Shown: in pieces, positions 11,349-18,846 of the stretch | Numbering within the stretch: the stretch's first letter is position 1 | Layout of the letters: the number at the start of each line of letters is the position of its first letter | NCBI GenBank assembly: GCA_001789695.1 | Contig: MGAI01000035.1 | Location: 2,274-66,273 of the forward strand | Source of the DNA: Candidatus Roizmanbacteria bacterium RIFCSPLOWO2_01_FULL_37_16 | GTDB taxonomy: Bacteria; Patescibacteriota; Microgenomatia; UBA1406; GWC2-37-13 | Length of the DNA stretch: 64,000 nt | Reading direction: 5' to 3' | Program-made: the position numbers and the translations under genes | Notes under the pieces: generated by a model | Databases searched by the model: none | The model's input: only the letters and a program-made list of their open reading frames with translations | Told to the model about the DNA's origin: nothing

Positions 11349-11378
11349 TATCTAGTATTAAGTATTTAGTATTTAGTA
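11346..11378. repeat. Left arm of heptamer palindrome flanking the four-helix-bundle gene
   Basis: TAGTATCTAGTATTAAGTATTTAGTATTTAGTA. It begins with the topA TAG stop and ends in the ATG of the next ORF. Confidence 0.55.
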
Positions 11379-11752
11379 TGAATACAAAAATCAGATCTTT
11401 TACCCAATTAAATGCATGGAAAAAAGCACATAGGTTTGTGCTTTTCATATATAAAATAACCAAAACATTTCCAAAAGAAGAATTATACGGTTTAGTCAAC
11501 CAGATGAGAAGAGCTGCTGTTTCTATCACGAGTAATATTGCAGAGGGGTTTTATAGAAGAACATCAGAGGATAAAAATCATTTTTATTACACTTCATTAA
11601 CATCGCTAGCAGAAATTCAGAATCAGTTAATTATTTCAAGAGATTTAAATTATATTTCTAATACTGTATTTCAAGAAGCTGCTAAATATTCTATCGAAGT
11701 TCAAAAGTTAATAAATGGTCTTATTAAATCTTCTAGTACGAAGAGTTTTTAA
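11378..11752 (+). CDS. Four-helix-bundle protein of the '23S rRNA intervening-sequence protein' family
   Basis: 124 aa with the family hallmarks recognisable by eye (F..L.AWKKAH.F...IYKITK.FPKEE.YGL..QMRRAAVSI.SNIAEG). Confidence 0.75.
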   Translation: MNTKIRSFTQLNAWKKAHRFVLFIYKITKTFPKEELYGLVNQMRRAAVSITSNIAEGFYRRTSEDKNHFYYTSLTSLAEIQNQLIISRDLNYISNTVFQEAAKYSIEVQKLINGLIKSSSTKSF

Positions 11753-12389: not shown

Positions 12390-13397
12390 ATGAAAGAGCA
12401 AAAAGTCTGGCGGGGTGAATCAGATTTAAGACCGCAGAAACTTTCCGATTATATCGGCCACAAAAACGTCGTAAAGACGCTTCGCTTATTTATCGATGCA
12501 GTAAAAAACCGTGGCGCATCAACAGAGCATTTACTTCTTTACGGGCCGCCTGGGATCGGTAAAACTACCTTAGCCTATATCATAGCACGGGAACTTGGTG
12601 GCGAAATTAAAATTACCTCAGGTGCAGCTATTACTAAAACAGGGGATTTGGCTGCAATTTTAACCAACTTAAATAAAAACGACGTTTTTTTTATTGATGA
12701 AATCCATAGGCTACCTAAACCAGTTGAGGAGCTTTTGTATCCTGTGATGGAAGATTTCTCGCTTGATCTAATAATTGGCAAAGGTCCTGCGGCAAGAACC
12801 GTTCGTTTGCCTATAGCTAGTATCACACTTGTTGGCGCAACCACAAAACTAGCTTTGCTTTCGGCGCCACTAAGAGACAGGTTTGGATTGATATTGAGAA
12901 TTGATTATTATTCCCATGATGAGATTGTTGACATTGTCAAGCGATCAAGCCAAATACTAAAATTGCCAATCACAGACAATGCAGCTTCTGAGATTGCTAA
13001 AAGATCAAGAAGGATTCCCCGAGTAGCCAACAGAATATTAAAACGAGCCAGAGACATGTTTGAGGTAGATAAACACAAAATAATTGACGATTTGATGCTG
13101 AAGCAGCTTTTTGCTCTTTTGGAGATTGACGAACGTGGACTAATGTCGGTTGATAGAAAGTACCTCCTTTTATTAATAAAAAAATTCCAAAATGCTCCAG
13201 TTGGATTAGACACTATTGCCTTGTCTTTATCAGAAGATAAAAGGACAATAGAGGAGTTTATTGAACCATATCTGATGCAGATTGGTTTTATTAAAAAAAC
13301 TGCCCGGGGAAGAGTAGTTACTGGTCAGGCTTTTGAGCATCTGGGACTTAAATTGTCATTGTCTTCACCAGCTATGAGACAGGAGAAACTGGTATAA
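12390..13397 (+). CDS. ruvB: Holliday junction helicase subunit RuvB
   Basis: LRPQKLSDYIGH, Walker A GPPGIGKTT, Walker B FIDEIHRL. Confidence 0.95.
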   Translation: MKEQKVWRGESDLRPQKLSDYIGHKNVVKTLRLFIDAVKNRGASTEHLLLYGPPGIGKTTLAYIIARELGGEIKITSGAAITKTGDLAAILTNLNKNDVFFIDEIHRLPKPVEELLYPVMEDFSLDLIIGKGPAARTVRLPIASITLVGATTKLALLSAPLRDRFGLILRIDYYSHDEIVDIVKRSSQILKLPITDNAASEIAKRSRRIPRVANRILKRARDMFEVDKHKIIDDLMLKQLFALLEIDERGLMSVDRKYLLLLIKKFQNAPVGLDTIALSLSEDKRTIEEFIEPYLMQIGFIKKTARGRVVTGQAFEHLGLKLSLSSPAMRQEKLV

Positions 13398-13408
13398 TTT
13401 AAAGATTA

Positions 13409-13505
13409 GCCTGGGTGGCGGAATTGGTATACGCGCAGGACTTACCCAGAACCACATAGGGTTCTGGGTACCCCAAACCCAGCGTGGTTTGGGGTAAAAT
13501 CTTGT
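13409..13505 (+). pseudogene. tRNA-Leu(UAA) pseudo-fragment (nt 1-45) interrupted by a 52-nt twin-hairpin insert
   Basis: 13409-13444 is identical to nt 1-36 of the intact tRNA at 13752. Two perfect 9-bp hairpins follow. AAAATCTTGT (13496-13505) then mimics the 3' side of the anticodon loop and stem. No variable arm, T arm or acceptor 3' strand follows. Confidence 0.6.
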
Positions 13506-13506
13506 T

Positions 13507-13752
13507 ATGAACTACGTATACGTTTTGAAATCATCAACAAGAATTTATATTGGTAGAACGAGTAAGCTTAAGGAGAGAATAAATGAACATTTTAAAAGAA
13601 AAACATGGACTACTAGACGATTTAAAAAGTTAGAATTAATTTTTTATGAGGCATTTAAAGATAAAATAGATAGTATAAGAAGAGAGAGATATTTTAAAAC
13701 ATCAAAAGGTAAGTCGTCATTAAAACAGATAATAAGAGAGTCTTTAAAATAG
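13507..13752 (+). CDS. Small GIY-YIG nuclease-family protein (YhbQ/COG2827-like, 81 aa)
   Basis: The N-terminus YVYVLKSSTRIYIGRTSKLKERINEH carries the GIY...YIG motifs and conserved Arg; RRERYFK supplies the conserved Glu. The stop codon TAG overlaps nt 1 of the tRNA. Confidence 0.8.
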   Translation: MNYVYVLKSSTRIYIGRTSKLKERINEHFKRKTWTTRRFKKLELIFYEAFKDKIDSIRRERYFKTSKGKSSLKQIIRESLK

Positions 13753-13839
13753 CCTGGGTGGCGGAATTGGTATACGCGCAGGACTTAAAATCCTGTAGCT
13801 GCATAAGCTGTGAGGGTTCGAGTCCCTCCTCAGGCACCA
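13752..13839 (+). tRNA. tRNA-Leu(UAA), class II, CCA encoded
   Basis: Cloverleaf folded by hand: acceptor GCCTGGG/CTCAGGC, anticodon arm CAGGA-CTTAAAA-TCCTG, long variable arm (AGCT-gcata-AGCT), T arm GAGGG-TTCGAGT-CCCTC, then A-CCA. Confidence 0.9.
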
Positions 13840-13999
13840 TTTGGGAAATTGCGAAATCATTGGGTACGACGCTCGCAACGCCGCCGCCCGATGCGAGCGC
13901 CGCAATGTGAAGGAAAAAAGAAAATTGATCAGGAGGTGGCGGGGTGTTTCAGTGAGTGGGAGTTAGTCTAAACTTGACAGGCTGATAAAATAGAGATGA

Positions 14000-14113
14000 T
14001 TGAGTAATTTGAACACTCTTATCAAGGCACTCGGTGAAAACAGAGCCAAAAGGGACGAGAGCCTGTCGCACCATACAACATTGGGAATCGGAGGGAAGGC
14101 AGATGTATTTTTC
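14000..14113 (+). pseudogene. murB: N-terminal stub of murB (UDP-N-acetylenolpyruvoylglucosamine reductase)
   Basis: LIKALGENRAKRDESLSHHTTLGIGGKADVFF matches the conserved MurB N-terminus (..L.EN.pL..HTT..IGGpAD.f.). Similarity stops after ~38 codons, and the frame runs on into the fucosidase ORF. Confidence 0.55.
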
Positions 14114-14152
14114 AAAAGAGGTATTAAAATAATTACAAAAAAAACTTTTTAT

Positions 14153-15154
14153 ATGTCCCTATCTTCCAAAAGAAATATTACCCTTAGCGAAAATAAATTG
14201 ACATGGTGGAAAAAAGCGAAATTTGGAATGTTTATTCATTGGGGACTTTATTCTTATTTAGGGGGAATCTGGAAGAGTAAAAAAACAAACTATTACAGTG
14301 AGTGGATAATGAACACTTTAGATATTCCCGATTCCGAATATTCAAAAGTTGCTGATAAATTTAACCCTATAAAATTTGATCCCTATAAATGGGTTAAAAC
14401 AGCAAAATTAGGAGGTATGAAATATCTCATTTTTACGGCAAAACATCATGAAGGATTTTCTATGTTTGATTCCAAATTAACTGACTACAATATAGTTAAG
14501 GCATCTCCCTACAAACACGACGTCGTATCAGAACTATCCCAAGCCTGTAAAAAGGAAGGGTTAAAATTTGGTGTTTATTATTCTTTATTAGATTGGCATC
14601 GGACTAAATCTCCCGGCACTTTTGGTTCACTTTTTGAGAAATCAGATAAATATTTTAAGTTTGTTAAGGGTCAAATTAGAGAACTTTTGACAAACTACGG
14701 AGATATATCAGTATTATTTTTTGACGGAGACTGGATGCTTACTTGGAATAAAAACAAAGGTAGAGAACTGGAAAAATTAATTAGAAAATTACAACCAAAT
14801 ATAATCATTAACGACAGAATTGGTAAAAGGCCTTATACATACTACGTTCCGATTATTAAATCCATATTCTTGCAAAAACCAAACATCGGCGACTACTCTA
14901 CTATCGAACAGGCTGTTCCTTTTTTCAAACAAAGTTTTAACTGGGAAAGTAATATAACTATAAATGATTCTTGGGGTTATAAAAAATTTGATAACAACTG
15001 GAAATCTGCATCAAAGATAATTTCAATTTATGAAAAAGCATTACGGTTTAAAGGCAATCTGCTTTTAAATATTGGACCTGATGGAGATGGTAATATTCCC
15101 GTTTCCTCGATTAAAATTCTAAAAGAGATAGGAAAAAGGATGTCAGAGAGTTAA
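14153..15154 (+). CDS. Alpha-L-fucosidase (GH29-like)
   Basis: WWKKAKFGMFIHWGLYS, KYLIFTAKHHEGFSMFDS and VLFFDGDW are GH29 signatures. Start taken at the Met at 14153, after the murB stub. Confidence 0.8.
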   Translation: MSLSSKRNITLSENKLTWWKKAKFGMFIHWGLYSYLGGIWKSKKTNYYSEWIMNTLDIPDSEYSKVADKFNPIKFDPYKWVKTAKLGGMKYLIFTAKHHEGFSMFDSKLTDYNIVKASPYKHDVVSELSQACKKEGLKFGVYYSLLDWHRTKSPGTFGSLFEKSDKYFKFVKGQIRELLTNYGDISVLFFDGDWMLTWNKNKGRELEKLIRKLQPNIIINDRIGKRPYTYYVPIIKSIFLQKPNIGDYSTIEQAVPFFKQSFNWESNITINDSWGYKKFDNNWKSASKIISIYEKALRFKGNLLLNIGPDGDGNIPVSSIKILKEIGKRMSES

Positions 15155-18098: not shown

Positions 18099-18169
18099 GC
18101 CTCCTTAGCTTAGTGGTAAAGCAGCGGTTTTGTAAACCGTCGATCGCAGTTCGATTCTGCGAGGAGGCT
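18099..18169 (+). tRNA. tRNA-Thr(UGU)
   Basis: Hand-folded cloverleaf: acceptor GCCTCCT/AGGAGGC, anticodon arm GCGGT-TTTGTAA-ACCGT, T arm CGCAG-TTCGATT-CTGCG. Confidence 0.85.
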
Positions 18170-18214
18170 CAAAAAAGCAAGGCAAGCTAGTTACTAAGAG
18201 TGTAATTAATATTA

Positions 18215-18287
18215 GCGCTCGTAGCTTAATGGATAGAGCAATTCCCTTCTAAGGAATAGGTTGAGCGTTCGACTCGCTCCGAGCGCA
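18215..18287 (+). tRNA. tRNA-Arg(UCU)
   Basis: Acceptor GCGCTCG/CGAGCGC, anticodon arm ATTCC-CTTCTAA-GGAAT, T arm GAGCG-TTCGACT-CGCTC. Confidence 0.85.
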
Positions 18288-18330
18288 CTTCGATCTCGAT
18301 TTATACGTGTCTGTCTGGGGAGTACTTAAA

Positions 18331-18756
18331 ATGAAGAAAAAAGAAAAAAAGATCATCCCAGTTATTGTAGCGGTGATACGAAAAAACCAGAGATATCTTC
18401 TTACCAAGAGAAGACATAACGATGGCAGGTTTAATAACAAATGGCAGTTTCCCGGTGGAGAGTTAGAGTATGGCGAGAAAATCTATACCTGTTTAAAGCG
18501 AGAAGTCAAAGAAGAACTAAACCTAGATATAAAAAAAGCCAAATTAATACCAATTATTTATGAAGCTAAACGATATGATTGGCACGGATTACTTTTTCCC
18601 TATCTTTGTCAGTTGAATAAAGGCGAACAAAATATTAAATTAGACGACGAAGCTTCCGATTATAGGTGGTTTTTAGCCAGCGAAATTAAGAAGTTAAAAC
18701 AGTATCTTCCAGGATTAAAAGAGATTTTAAAAGAAGTGGATAAGGTTAATTTTTGA
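18331..18756 (+). CDS. Nudix hydrolase (MutT-like)
   Basis: Nudix box GGELEYGEKIYTCLKREVKEELNL. Start placed at the ATG at 18331, because the GTG at 18307 in the track abuts the tRNA. Confidence 0.8.
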   Translation: MKKKEKKIIPVIVAVIRKNQRYLLTKRRHNDGRFNNKWQFPGGELEYGEKIYTCLKREVKEELNLDIKKAKLIPIIYEAKRYDWHGLLFPYLCQLNKGEQNIKLDDEASDYRWFLASEIKKLKQYLPGLKEILKEVDKVNF

Positions 18757-18761
18757 AATCT

Positions 18762-18846
18762 TGGTGGGTCGGAGAGGACTTGAACCTCCACGCCTTGCGG
18801 CACAGCCTCCTCAAGACTGCGCGTATACCAATTCCGCCACCGACCC
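18762..18846 (-). tRNA. tRNA-Leu(GAG), class II, CCA encoded
   Basis: The reverse complement reads GGGTCGGTGGCGGAATTGGTATACGCGCAGTCTTGAGGAGGCTG...GGAGGTTCAAGTCCTCTCCGACCCACCA. Anticodon loop TTGAGGA. Confidence 0.85.

Follow-up and report, generated by a model that had tools for sequence, protein, structure and literature searches.

The Ssn nucleases consist of a GIY-YIG domain alone, bind hairpin repeats located next to their own gene and cleave single-stranded DNA exclusively (Chenal et al. 2025, PMC11893778). SsnA of N. meningitidis has 94 aa, and the authors themselves liken the hairpin-gene-hairpin layout to an insertion sequence (PMC11893778). Free-standing GIY-YIG homing endonucleases such as T4 SegB have their genes next to tRNA genes (PMC2330249). 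Mobile endonuclease ORFs that carry a replacement gene terminus are known from atp6 of Allomyces and from atp6, atp9, cox2 and nad3 of Glomus (PMC3630166). These mitochondrial ORFs insert in an essential gene, supply the cut-off part anew and leave the native part as a displaced remnant, and the displaced and working copies can be different alleles. Integrase islands and prophages target tRNA genes as well, regenerate them from an element-borne copy and leave a partial tRNA repeat. Finally, IS200/IS605 elements and REP/RAYT systems, to which PMC11893778 also refers, have hairpins that act in single-stranded DNA, insert next to a very short target, carry short internal sequences complementary to the target or cleavage site, and also exist as hairpin-only derivatives.

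We describe here a locus of Candidatus Roizmanbacteria bacterium RIFCSPLOWO2_01_FULL_37_16 (GCA_001789695.1, contig MGAI01000035.1, positions 2,274-66,273, forward strand; the window is this whole stretch of 64,000 nt), where a small GIY-YIG gene and a pair of hairpins are found between ruvB and tRNA-Leu(UAA). The locus is probably one copy of a widespread family of selfish mini-elements in tRNA genes, each consisting of an inverted hairpin pair and a minimal single-domain GIY-YIG nuclease of the UPF0213/Slx1/Ssn type. A full-text literature search, with most subscription journals outside its coverage, found no description of tRNA-linked small GIY-YIG cassettes, and the family is apparently undescribed.

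An insertion that regenerates tRNA-Leu(UAA)

The first-pass annotation had described a GIY-YIG gene cassette bracketed by a 38-nt direct repeat made of the 5′ half of the tRNA, and this layout holds up throughout (Table 1). The two repeat copies (TAGCCTGGGTGGCGGAATTGGTATACGCGCAGGACTTA) are identical at 38/38 positions, are spaced 343 nt from start to start, and give two matches in the window versus 0 in 100 shuffles. The downstream copy runs into the intact tRNA. The displaced tRNA half of the upstream copy begins, in the window, 11 nt past the ruvB stop and breaks in the anticodon loop, the repeat ending after the second anticodon base. Between the copies lie the two hairpins of 10-11 bp and the intact 81-aa ORF, whose TAG stop is formed by the first three bases of the repeat, with its G as nt 1 of the tRNA. 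The working tRNA is regenerated by a second copy of its 5′ part, joined directly to the ORF end. The extra 343 bp can be described equivalently as 13407-13749 because of the repeat.

Past hairpin 2 the tRNA sequence restarts, a detail missing from the earlier annotation: positions 13495-13505 (TAAAATCTTGT) equal 13786-13796 (TAAAATCCTGT) at 10/11, TA included. The upstream copy therefore corresponds to tRNA nt 1 to ~45, with the hairpin pair exactly in its anticodon loop.

Table 1. Features of the cassette locus (positions in the window)
Feature	Position	Strand	Remarks
ruvB	12390..13397	+	335-aa ORF; conserved upstream neighbour defining the insertion site
Direct repeat, copy 1	13407..13444	+	TA plus tRNA-Leu gene nt 1-36; displaced 5′ part; exact 38-nt repeat
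Hairpin 1	13443..13470	.	TACCCAGAACC / loop ACATAG / GGTTCTGGGTA; 11-nt perfectly complementary arms
Extra 343 bp relative to the empty site in relatives	13445..13787	+	repeat spacing and comparison with L083
Hairpin 2	13469..13496	.	TACCCCAAACC / loop CAGCGT / GGTTTGGGGTA; 11-nt perfectly complementary arms
Resumed tRNA sequence	13497..13505	+	AAATCTTGT vs tRNA AAATCCTGT; 3′ side of anticodon loop and stem, displaced copy
81-aa single-domain GIY-YIG nuclease gene	13507..13752	+	Pfam match; stop TAG 13750-13752 overlaps tRNA nt 1
Direct repeat, copy 2	13750..13787	+	2 nt preceding the tRNA, then nt 1-36 of the working tRNA
Intact tRNA-Leu(UAA), CCA end	13752..13839	+	ARAGORN; Rfam RF00005 60.6 bits, E=1.5e-12

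The order atpC-topA-ruvA-ruvB-tRNA-Leu(UAA) is conserved in relatives, with ruvB-tRNA-Leu(UAA) synteny in four of the contigs compared (L081-L084), and relatives whose RuvB is 76-77% identical keep this synteny without the cassette. In L083 (RuvB 76% identical) an intact tRNA lies 9 nt past the ruvB stop; in L084 and L082 the ruvB-tRNA gaps are 56 and 90 nt, with no called GIY-YIG gene. The cassette is an insertion relative to these close relatives, and the empty sites support the earlier proposal of an insertion that regenerates its tRNA target; that the 343-bp cassette is a mobile insertion is well supported. Over 13370-13960, seven contigs of different ENA, NCBI and JGI assemblies match the window without a single difference, which rules out the assembly artefact against which the first-pass annotation had cautioned. 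The RuvB of the window is also 100% identical to that of Candidatus Roizmanbacteria RIFCSPHIGHO2_02_FULL. No empty allele was seen within this population (7 assemblies), occupied and empty sites being known between species only, and given this lack of presence/absence polymorphism recent activity in the population is unproven.

Two alternatives can be weighed from the layout itself. The locus had been set apart from integrase islands, and both of the proposed differences stand. In integrase islands it is the 3′ part of the tRNA that is duplicated, and a recombinase of the tyrosine or serine type is encoded; the 343-bp cassette, on the other hand, duplicates the 5′ part (nt 1-36), and no integrase or recombinase was found in or beside it, the sole ORF between the repeats being the GIY-YIG gene and the neighbours being ruvB, a fucosidase, a melibiase and a glycosyltransferase. 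An integrase island is thus ruled out. No second GIY-YIG copy was found within the 64-kb window. The second alternative is an interrupted or split tRNA gene, with either a group I intron and its homing endonuclease or a trans-spliced 5′ half, in which the upstream half would be a functional RNA. The break falls in the anticodon loop of tRNA-Leu(UAA), where the group I intron of cyanobacteria and plastids classically resides, and the hairpins are strongly structured. We nevertheless regard a split gene as vanishingly unlikely: an Rfam scan at E<=10 gave only tRNA and chance matches, with no intron or ribozyme match in 13300-14100, which rules out a group I intron or other known RNA; the insert has just ~60 non-coding nt; G·U pairs are not enriched in the stems; and with a complete tRNA downstream, splicing is not needed.

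The nuclease and the hairpin module

The ORF matches the Pfam GIY-YIG family PF01541 over residues 1-69 (E=1.7e-12, 47.9 bits against a cut-off of 22.6), and the catalytic residues Y5 (the Tyr of GIY), Y14 and G16 (the Tyr and Gly of YIG), R24, H28 and the metal-binding E48 are invariant among 35 aligned homologues. Of the 169 ORF matches, 162 translate to at least 70 aa without an internal stop, so that the degenerate ORF considered as a counter-argument in the first-pass annotation is not what is seen. An AlphaFold model (mean pLDDT 93.9) predicts the GIY-YIG alpha/beta fold, a beta-beta-alpha-alpha-beta arrangement followed by three helices, forming one domain with no extension. Its best Foldseek matches are UPF0213 BH0048 (1zg2) and Slx1 (7cq3, rmsd 1.7 Å over 72 columns), and a profile search against the PDB gives 1zg2 at E=1.8e-10, making UPF0213 proteins the nearest solved relatives; NCBIfam has no family-level match. 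Judged from its sequence and predicted fold, the protein is a single-domain GIY-YIG enzyme closest to UPF0213 and Slx1 that resembles the hairpin-binding, single-strand-specific Ssn nucleases. No promoter-like site was found inside the cassette, and the ORF and the tRNA are therefore probably co-transcribed from upstream. A known defence system was also considered and set aside, as PADLOC yields only 30-residue motif matches (UzuA and PDC-S14).

The hairpins are closely tied to the tRNA. The outer TA pair of hairpin 1 consists of anticodon bases of the displaced tRNA part; hairpin 2 is an inverted copy of hairpin 1, has the central TA in common with it and terminates in a second anticodon TA copy. 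As single-stranded DNA they are predicted to fold at -20 kcal/mol on both strands (z about -5), and the inverted arrangement of the module means that the same pair of hairpins appears on either strand. In 22 loci the motif CCnnnnACC-6 nt-GGTnnnnGG is kept and its stems covary. The ACC/GGT at the top of the stem does not vary, and the loops show partial conservation, with ACGTAG and its reverse complement as consensus; family-wide, loop 2 agrees with the reverse-complemented loop 1 at 92/132 positions, versus 24/132 when both are read in the same orientation. Double changes occur in 13 of 19 stem pairs, and 84 compensatory cells were observed versus 25 in shuffles, the observed value being reached in 0/500 shuffles. 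Among the non-Watson-Crick stem pairs of a leniently chosen set, G·T (30) is about as common as A·C (26), so wobble is not favoured. Covarying stems with no excess of G·T point to pairing at the level of DNA and speak against the hairpins being RNA structures; they also give indirect support to the idea that the 81-aa protein may cleave single-stranded DNA specifically, near its hairpin. Transcription terminators are likewise rejected, as a terminator scan remained at chance level.

The 170-nt stretches upstream of the ORFs contain 6.9 motif hairpins per kb, versus 0.29 per kb elsewhere in the loci. Within the 64-kb window the pattern matches just the two cassette sites, which rules out a genome-wide REP-like repeat for the window. 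The hairpin pair is a conserved, integral part of the element.

We can now compare the cassette with the Ssn system. First of all, both have a protein of ~80-95 aa made of the GIY-YIG domain alone (81 aa here, about 90-100 aa being typical of Ssn), with hairpin-forming repeats right beside the gene. Second, the hairpin motif is different: a scan of both strands of the window with the degenerate SRM pattern published for Ssn gives 0 matches, and this absence of the published Ssn-related motif counts against the explanation that we favour. Third, the cassette hairpins form an inverted pair in tRNA loops and are accompanied by a tRNA duplication; tRNA is not mentioned in the description of Ssn (0 occurrences in PMC11893778).

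Cassettes in other genomes

The first-pass annotation had suggested looking for further copies next to other tRNAs, and such copies are common. Among the loci analysed, which are the 80 best matches per collection and not a random sample, a same-strand tRNA adjoins 116 of the 143 homologous ORFs with both flanks available, either starting -9 to +128 nt (median ~9) past the conserved C-terminus or ending <=450 nt upstream; an opposite-strand tRNA is nearby for only 2 of 169 ORF matches. The adjoining genes are those of Leu(UAA/CAA), Gln(CUG/UUG), Glu, Ser, Met, Asp, Asn and other tRNAs, and the hosts belong to Patescibacteria, Omnitrophota, Planctomycetota and other lineages. At E<=1e-10 the family comprises 3,828 clusters (50% identity). 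The cassette is not a one-off, then, but belongs to a large family.

The same design is found again and again: a tRNA part is followed by the inverted hairpin pair, 4-8 nt more of the tRNA, the ORF and an intact tRNA, the 4-8-nt resumption being found also in other anticodon-type loci. Upstream tRNA parts end in the D, anticodon or T loop, or at CCA; more precisely, these parts, which derive from the same tRNA, stop at nt 12/13, 35/36, 55/56 or the 3′ end, and CCnnnnACC follows. The breaks in other genomes are found only at positions that are single-stranded in the cloverleaf (nt 12/13, 35/36, 55-57 and the CCA end). The stem of hairpin 1 reaches 2-3 bp into tRNA bases in 16 of 23 parsed loci. 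In copies of the anticodon type, the linker that joins the two hairpins complements the anticodon bases flanking the module (TA for UAA, TG for CAA, CAG for CUG, CAA for UUG, and TTA in L078); D-loop-type copies are without a complementary linker.

Nuclease lineages track tRNA type, the nearest-neighbour protein having the same tRNA class in 70 of 115 cases versus 11.5 expected by shuffling. Some displaced halves are foreign tRNA alleles: those of two loci (L017 and L022) have their own compensated D stem, differing from that of the adjacent tRNA. Among recent copies, the repeat extends 3 nt or more beyond tRNA nt 1 on the upstream side in 9 of 26 loci, versus 2.7% expected, which is easier to reconcile with a duplication made on the spot than with a tRNA part that was purely imported.

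These data bear on whether the locus could be an old fixed local duplication, in which a domesticated housekeeping nuclease gene, co-transcribed with tRNAs by chance, is no longer mobile or never was. Such an origin would agree with the identity of the locus in all 7 assemblies of the organism, with the constraint on the ORF and with the missing internal promoter. It is very improbable, however, in view of the relatives that are without the cassette at the same site, the cassettes beside at least 10 tRNA species in distant phyla, the perfect repeat identity, which argues for youth or ongoing conversion, the older fragments that accumulate in L003 and L014, and the foreign origin of some halves.

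Candidate modes of cutting and copying

For the mobile element that we favour, we infer the following course of events. The hairpins would be extruded from single-stranded DNA, on either strand, and, by analogy with Ssn nucleases and NTS hairpins, may be the binding sites of the encoded nuclease. The nuclease would then nick close to the hairpins, or else in the corresponding loop of a naive tRNA gene folded as a cloverleaf. Since GIY-YIG enzymes are hydrolytic and unable to join DNA, the explanation has to call on host repair: repair or copying from the occupied allele would bring in the hairpins, the ORF and the replacement tRNA part, with the tRNA sequence on both sides providing the homology. 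Only events that rebuild the essential single-copy tRNA would survive. Of the nuclease-driven mini-cassette put forward in the first-pass annotation, the mobile insertion stands on good support, while the nuclease as its driver is something we infer. Besides the repeats that extend upstream of the tRNA and the D-loop-type copies without a complementary linker, a further point counts against this explanation: if naive anticodon loops are cut, the regenerated tRNA of the occupied allele would be a target also, and its immunity is unaccounted for.

A classical free-standing homing endonuclease would make a double-strand break in the naive duplex tRNA-Leu gene, and repair would copy the ORF and the co-converted tRNA from the occupied allele, the hairpins being incidental or regulatory. 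Enzymes of this kind are known in the GIY-YIG family, and T4 SegB, encoded within the tRNA gene cluster, cuts tRNA genes (PMC2330249); mitochondrial mobile ORFs bring a replacement gene end that displaces the native one (PMC3630166); the foreign halves of L017 and L022 and the existence of empty sites would also be expected. Like Seg and I-Tev genes, the cassette is present or absent at a conserved site and is inherited together with flanking tRNA sequence. We consider this explanation unlikely on several grounds. First, known GIY-YIG homing enzymes need a DNA-binding domain, which in Seg and I-Tev is large and C-terminal, whereas the 81-aa protein is the catalytic domain alone. Second, a hairpin pair with covarying stems is kept in nearly all copies, exactly at the break point. 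Third, breaks confined to cloverleaf loops are unexpected under duplex recognition. The known systems also differ from the cassette in other respects. Seg and I-Tev loci have no hairpin module and no partial tRNA duplication, and the mitochondrial ORFs, which encode full-size LAGLIDADG or GIY-YIG endonucleases, have no conserved hairpin pair at the junction and replace the 3′ end of protein genes, not the 5′ part of a tRNA. Seg and I-Tev enzymes are phage-borne, whereas the cassette family has no tblastn match in 50,697 phage records, and with PHROG matches that are weak and partial, a phage origin finds no support.

A small circular or hairpin-ended element could also be envisaged, either recombining in Campbell fashion through its tRNA part with the chromosomal tRNA or using a single-strand 'peel and paste' route like that of IS200/IS605 with the linker as guide, so that the 343-bp unit would excise and re-insert precisely. 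The cassette resembles IS200/IS605 and REP/RAYT in its very short target and in the hairpin-only derivatives; its hairpins would likewise act in single-stranded DNA, and short complementarity to the target or cleavage site may be a further parallel. Recombination between the repeats would restore the tRNA exactly, as had been noted from the spacing of 343 bp, which we confirm. One contig (L092) starts with the ORF 3′ end, followed by tRNA nt 1-35 and hairpin 1, a junction expected of a circle or tandem copy. The linker, moreover, complements the bases that lie 5′ of the insertion point, and these recur where the module ends; the pairing of guide and cleavage site in IS608 resembles this complementarity, although the geometry differs from that of the cassette, whose linker complements the flanking anticodon bases. 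Even so, such an element is quite improbable. IS200/IS605 elements use a Y1 HUH transposase and a covalent intermediate, whereas no HUH or tyrosine transposase/recombinase was found in the cassette, whose only gene encodes a hydrolytic GIY-YIG enzyme, a type that forms no covalent intermediate. The unit formed by the two hairpins does not include the cassette ORF, which, unlike in IS200/IS605, is accompanied by a 15-45-nt target duplication; as for the junction in L092, it could have arisen when the assembly passed through repeats.

Within the favoured reading of a hairpin-nuclease element, the hairpin pair might itself act as a nucleic-acid guide, a possibility that we put forward only tentatively and hold to be rather doubtful. 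Its central di- or trinucleotide (a codon) would pair with anticodon or other loop bases of a tRNA-gene strand folded as a single-stranded cloverleaf, thus placing an Ssn-type single-strand nuclease on exposed loops. If true, this would constitute a new class of mobile element, with hairpin-guided, GIY-YIG-dependent insertion into tRNA-gene loops and a self-repairing duplication, and target choice would be re-programmable by 2-3 nucleotide changes.

If our overall reading holds, a selfish element of ~340 bp, comprising an 81-residue nuclease and two hairpins, would have settled in the tRNA genes of several lineages of bacteria, mainly those of the Candidate Phyla Radiation and the Omnitrophota, and many of the "GIY-YIG hypothetical proteins" and partial tRNA genes in those genomes would be explained. 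Hairpin-binding single-strand nucleases would gain a concrete selfish life style and a defined natural target, and the element would be the mirror image of integrase islands and mitochondrial mobile ORFs, since here it is the 5′ part of a tRNA that is replaced. Furthermore, target choice by a few base pairs and DNA structure would be testable and could serve single-stranded DNA tools, and a source of horizontal exchange of tRNA sequence would be flagged.

Insertion and tRNA regeneration at the ruvB site

The first-pass annotation had described a 38-nt repeat made of the 5′ half of tRNA-Leu(UAA), bracketing two hairpins and an 81-aa GIY-YIG ORF, and this layout is recovered in full (see table). 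No second match to the repeat arose in shuffles of the window. The repeat comprises TA plus nucleotides 1–36 of the tRNA gene and ends after the second anticodon base; its upstream copy thus stops within the anticodon loop, as had been proposed, and the TAG stop of the ORF does share its G with tRNA nucleotide 1. Past hairpin 2, the tRNA sequence picks up again over about 9 nt (13495–13505 against 13786–13796, 10/11), and the upstream copy is therefore the 5′ part of a tRNA with the hairpin pair inside its anticodon loop. Mis-assembly is excluded because seven contigs from separate assemblies are identical base for base over 13370–13960.

Features of the cassette, its surroundings and related loci (L-numbers are fetched contigs; other positions refer to the window)
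Feature	Position	Remarks
Direct repeat, copy 1	13407-13444	38 nt, identical to copy 2; spacing 343 nt
Direct repeat, copy 2	13750-13787	
Hairpin 1	13443-13470	11-nt perfectly complementary arms
Hairpin 2	13469-13496	11-nt perfectly complementary arms
81-aa GIY-YIG ORF	13507-13752	3′ of hairpins; Pfam GIY-YIG match well over threshold
tRNA-Leu(UAA)	13752-13839	Intact, continues from repeat copy 2; ARAGORN; Rfam tRNA 60.6 bits
124-aa 23S_rRNA_IVP / bAvd four-helix-bundle ORF	11378-11752 (+)	Between topA and ruvA; Pfam E=2.3e-36
G+C-rich inverted repeat (CGACGCTCGCAACG / CGATGCGAGCGCCG)	13867-13902	Directly 3′ of the tRNA; genome 35% G+C
Fucosidase ORF	14000-15154 (+)	64 N-terminal residues beyond Alpha_L_fucos domain
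tRNA-Thr / Arg / Leu(GAG) cluster	18099-18846	
172-aa HNH_3 (PF13392) ORF	L081 4042-4560	Between ruvB and tRNA-Leu(UAA); overlaps first 48 nt of the tRNA
Two nearby family GIY-YIG ORFs	L011 3001-3706; L020 3-754; L061 3001-4123; L015 12-2263	Each ORF accompanied by separate hairpins and a tRNA, whole or fragmentary
Stacked older tRNA-Leu 5′ fragments	L003 ~2800-2985; L014 ~2850-2985	At least two upstream of one ORF, hairpins after each
ORF 3′ end joined to tRNA-Leu	L092 1-160, 352-452	First 65 nt of contig match the GIY-YIG ORF 3′ end exactly; tRNA-Leu nt 1-35 and hairpin 1 come next
Extra hairpin insertions in D loops of displaced tRNA halves	L002 2781-2908; L007 2858-2927; L010 2855-2937; L016; L045	
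Solo hairpin pairs	e.g. L061 1714-1763	3′ of the CCA end of tRNAs without nuclease gene

Four related contigs (L081–L084), found through RuvB homologues of 76–81% identity, keep the gene order atpC-topA-ruvA-ruvB-tRNA-Leu(UAA). In L083, the intact tRNA begins 9 nt past the ruvB stop, and the ruvB-to-tRNA gap is 56 nt in L084 and 90 nt in L082; neither a called GIY-YIG gene nor a hairpin pair is seen in these three gaps, which supply the empty sites. In the window, the tRNA half-copy begins 11 nt past ruvB, and removal of 343 bp, predicted earlier to leave a single intact tRNA after ruvB, would restore the L083 arrangement. By this comparison of gene order, the cassette is an insertion at the ruvB-tRNA-Leu site.

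Other differences surround this site. L081, whose RuvB is 81% identical, has it occupied by a different nuclease gene, of HNH_3 type, and neither the half-tRNA repeat nor the hairpins are seen in that gap. Between topA and ruvA, L081, L083 and L084 have no called gene, and the window's four-helix-bundle ORF appears to be another small insertion into this operon. The inverted repeat 3′ of the tRNA is not seen in the 30–45 nt 3′ of the tRNA in L083 and L084. Further downstream, gene callers place the fucosidase start differently in identical DNA (4111, 4120 and 4264 in the identical assemblies L085–L091), and the content between tRNA-Leu(UAA) and the downstream tRNA cluster varies among relatives.

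A family with loop-restricted break points

Homologues of the ORF are many (55–75% identical, 83–86 aa) and occur in Patescibacteria and other uncultured lineages, a profile search giving 3,828 clusters at E<=1e-10; far from being degenerate, they have invariant catalytic residues. Loci were sampled as the 80 best matches from reference genomes and the 80 best from metagenomes, and thus represent best-scoring matches only. Within this sample, 116 of the 143 ORFs with both flanks available have a same-strand tRNA, either starting a median of ~9 nt past the conserved C-terminus or ending at most 450 nt upstream, so that further copies beside other tRNAs do exist; a nearby tRNA on the opposite strand accompanies only 2 of all 169 ORF hits.

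If the tRNA is 3′ of the ORF, the region upstream of the ORF holds a piece of that tRNA, which stops at discrete positions: nucleotide 12/13 in the D arm, the anticodon at nucleotide 35 for Leu and 36 for Gln, or nucleotide 55/56 in the T loop. If instead an intact tRNA lies 5′, the hairpins begin at its CCA end. Every break position is single-stranded in the cloverleaf, as is the left edge of the repeat, 0–7 nt before nucleotide 1, except in two copies. Exact repeats of 33–43 nt resembling that of the window occur at ten loci (L005, L078, L019, L021, L031, L038, L046, L055, L077 and L099). In 70 of 115 cases, a protein and its nearest relative sit at the same tRNA class (shuffling gives 11.5), and the closest relatives of the window protein occur beside tRNA-Leu(UAA) genes of other lineages, in different gene contexts. 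Judged from these sequences, the window cassette is a member of a large family sharing one design. Four loci carry two nearby family ORFs each.

Selected DNA hairpins and a complementary linker

The 170 nt upstream of the ORFs are 24-fold enriched in hairpins whose stem top is ACC/GGT; directly 3′ of other tRNAs without an ORF, the enrichment is 8-fold. Covariation was assessed in 22 distinct modules with six-nucleotide loops; since these were picked for pairing, only their covariation, and not the paired percentage, counts as independent evidence. Changes on both sides occur in 13 of 19 stem pairs; there are 84 compensatory cells where shuffles give 25, the observed value being reached in 0/500. 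Under a more lenient choice of modules, the non-Watson-Crick pairs are no more often G·T (30) than A·C (26), a sign that selection acts on pairing in DNA rather than in RNA. Loop 2 matches the reverse complement of loop 1 at 92/132 positions, against 24/132 in the same orientation; the pair is thus inverted, and the same two hairpins can be extruded from each DNA strand.

In anticodon-type copies, the linker between the hairpins is complementary to the anticodon bases directly before hairpin 1, and hairpin 2 closes with the same bases before the tRNA resumes. Before hairpin 1, in the linker and at the close of hairpin 2, the bases read TA/TA/TA (UAA), CA/TG/CA (CAA), CTG/CAG/CTG, TTG/CAA/TTG or TAA/TTA/TAA, with CG/CG/CG in T-loop and GCCA/TGGC/GCCA in CCA-end copies; a complementary linker is absent from D-arm copies. 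Extra hairpin insertions and solo pairs also occur (see table), and the hairpin unit appears capable of spreading alone, like a miniature non-autonomous element.

Signs of movement, a proposed mechanism and precedents

The displaced halves in L017 (D stem GTG/CAC) and L022 (ACG/CGT) differ from the adjacent tRNAs (both GCG/CGC) yet retain their own compensated D stems and therefore come from another functional allele, a sign of horizontal movement; the foreign C-termini brought by mitochondrial mobile ORFs are a parallel (PMC3630166). Young repeats extend 3 nt or more beyond the 5′ end of the tRNA at 9 of 26 loci, where 2.7% would be expected, which speaks against a purely imported tRNA part. 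The stacked fragments in L003 and L014 suggest that a single tRNA gene was invaded repeatedly; that the cassette is a fixed relic ranks third among the rival explanations. A circular or peel-and-paste route ranks second, and the L092 junction is that expected of tandem re-invasion or an excised circle, although it could be an assembly path through repeats.

The 81-aa protein is predicted by AlphaFold to adopt a confident GIY-YIG fold (pLDDT 93.9), the nearest solved structures being those of UPF0213 proteins and of the nuclease domain of Slx1, and is without a DNA-binding domain. By analogy, its best functional precedent would be the Ssn family. These GIY-YIG proteins, 94 aa long, bind to hairpin repeats next to the genes that encode them, and their cleavage is confined to single-stranded DNA near the hairpin (PMC11893778). 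The Ssn motif has no match here, and tRNAs are unmentioned in that paper. We propose that the nuclease would bind the extruded hairpins, or the cloverleaf-folded strand of a naive tRNA gene, and nick nearby; repair or copying would then use the tRNA sequence flanking the cassette on both sides as homology, and selection would retain only events that rebuild the tRNA. Classical duplex homing is the first-ranked rival to this scheme. As no promoter-like site was found inside the cassette, the ORF and the tRNA are probably transcribed together, by read-through from ruvB.

A full-text literature search found nothing on tRNA-linked small GIY-YIG cassettes. The known kin of the cassette are homing-type selfish nuclease genes and Ssn-hairpin modules, and there is a real chance that it represents a new class of element.
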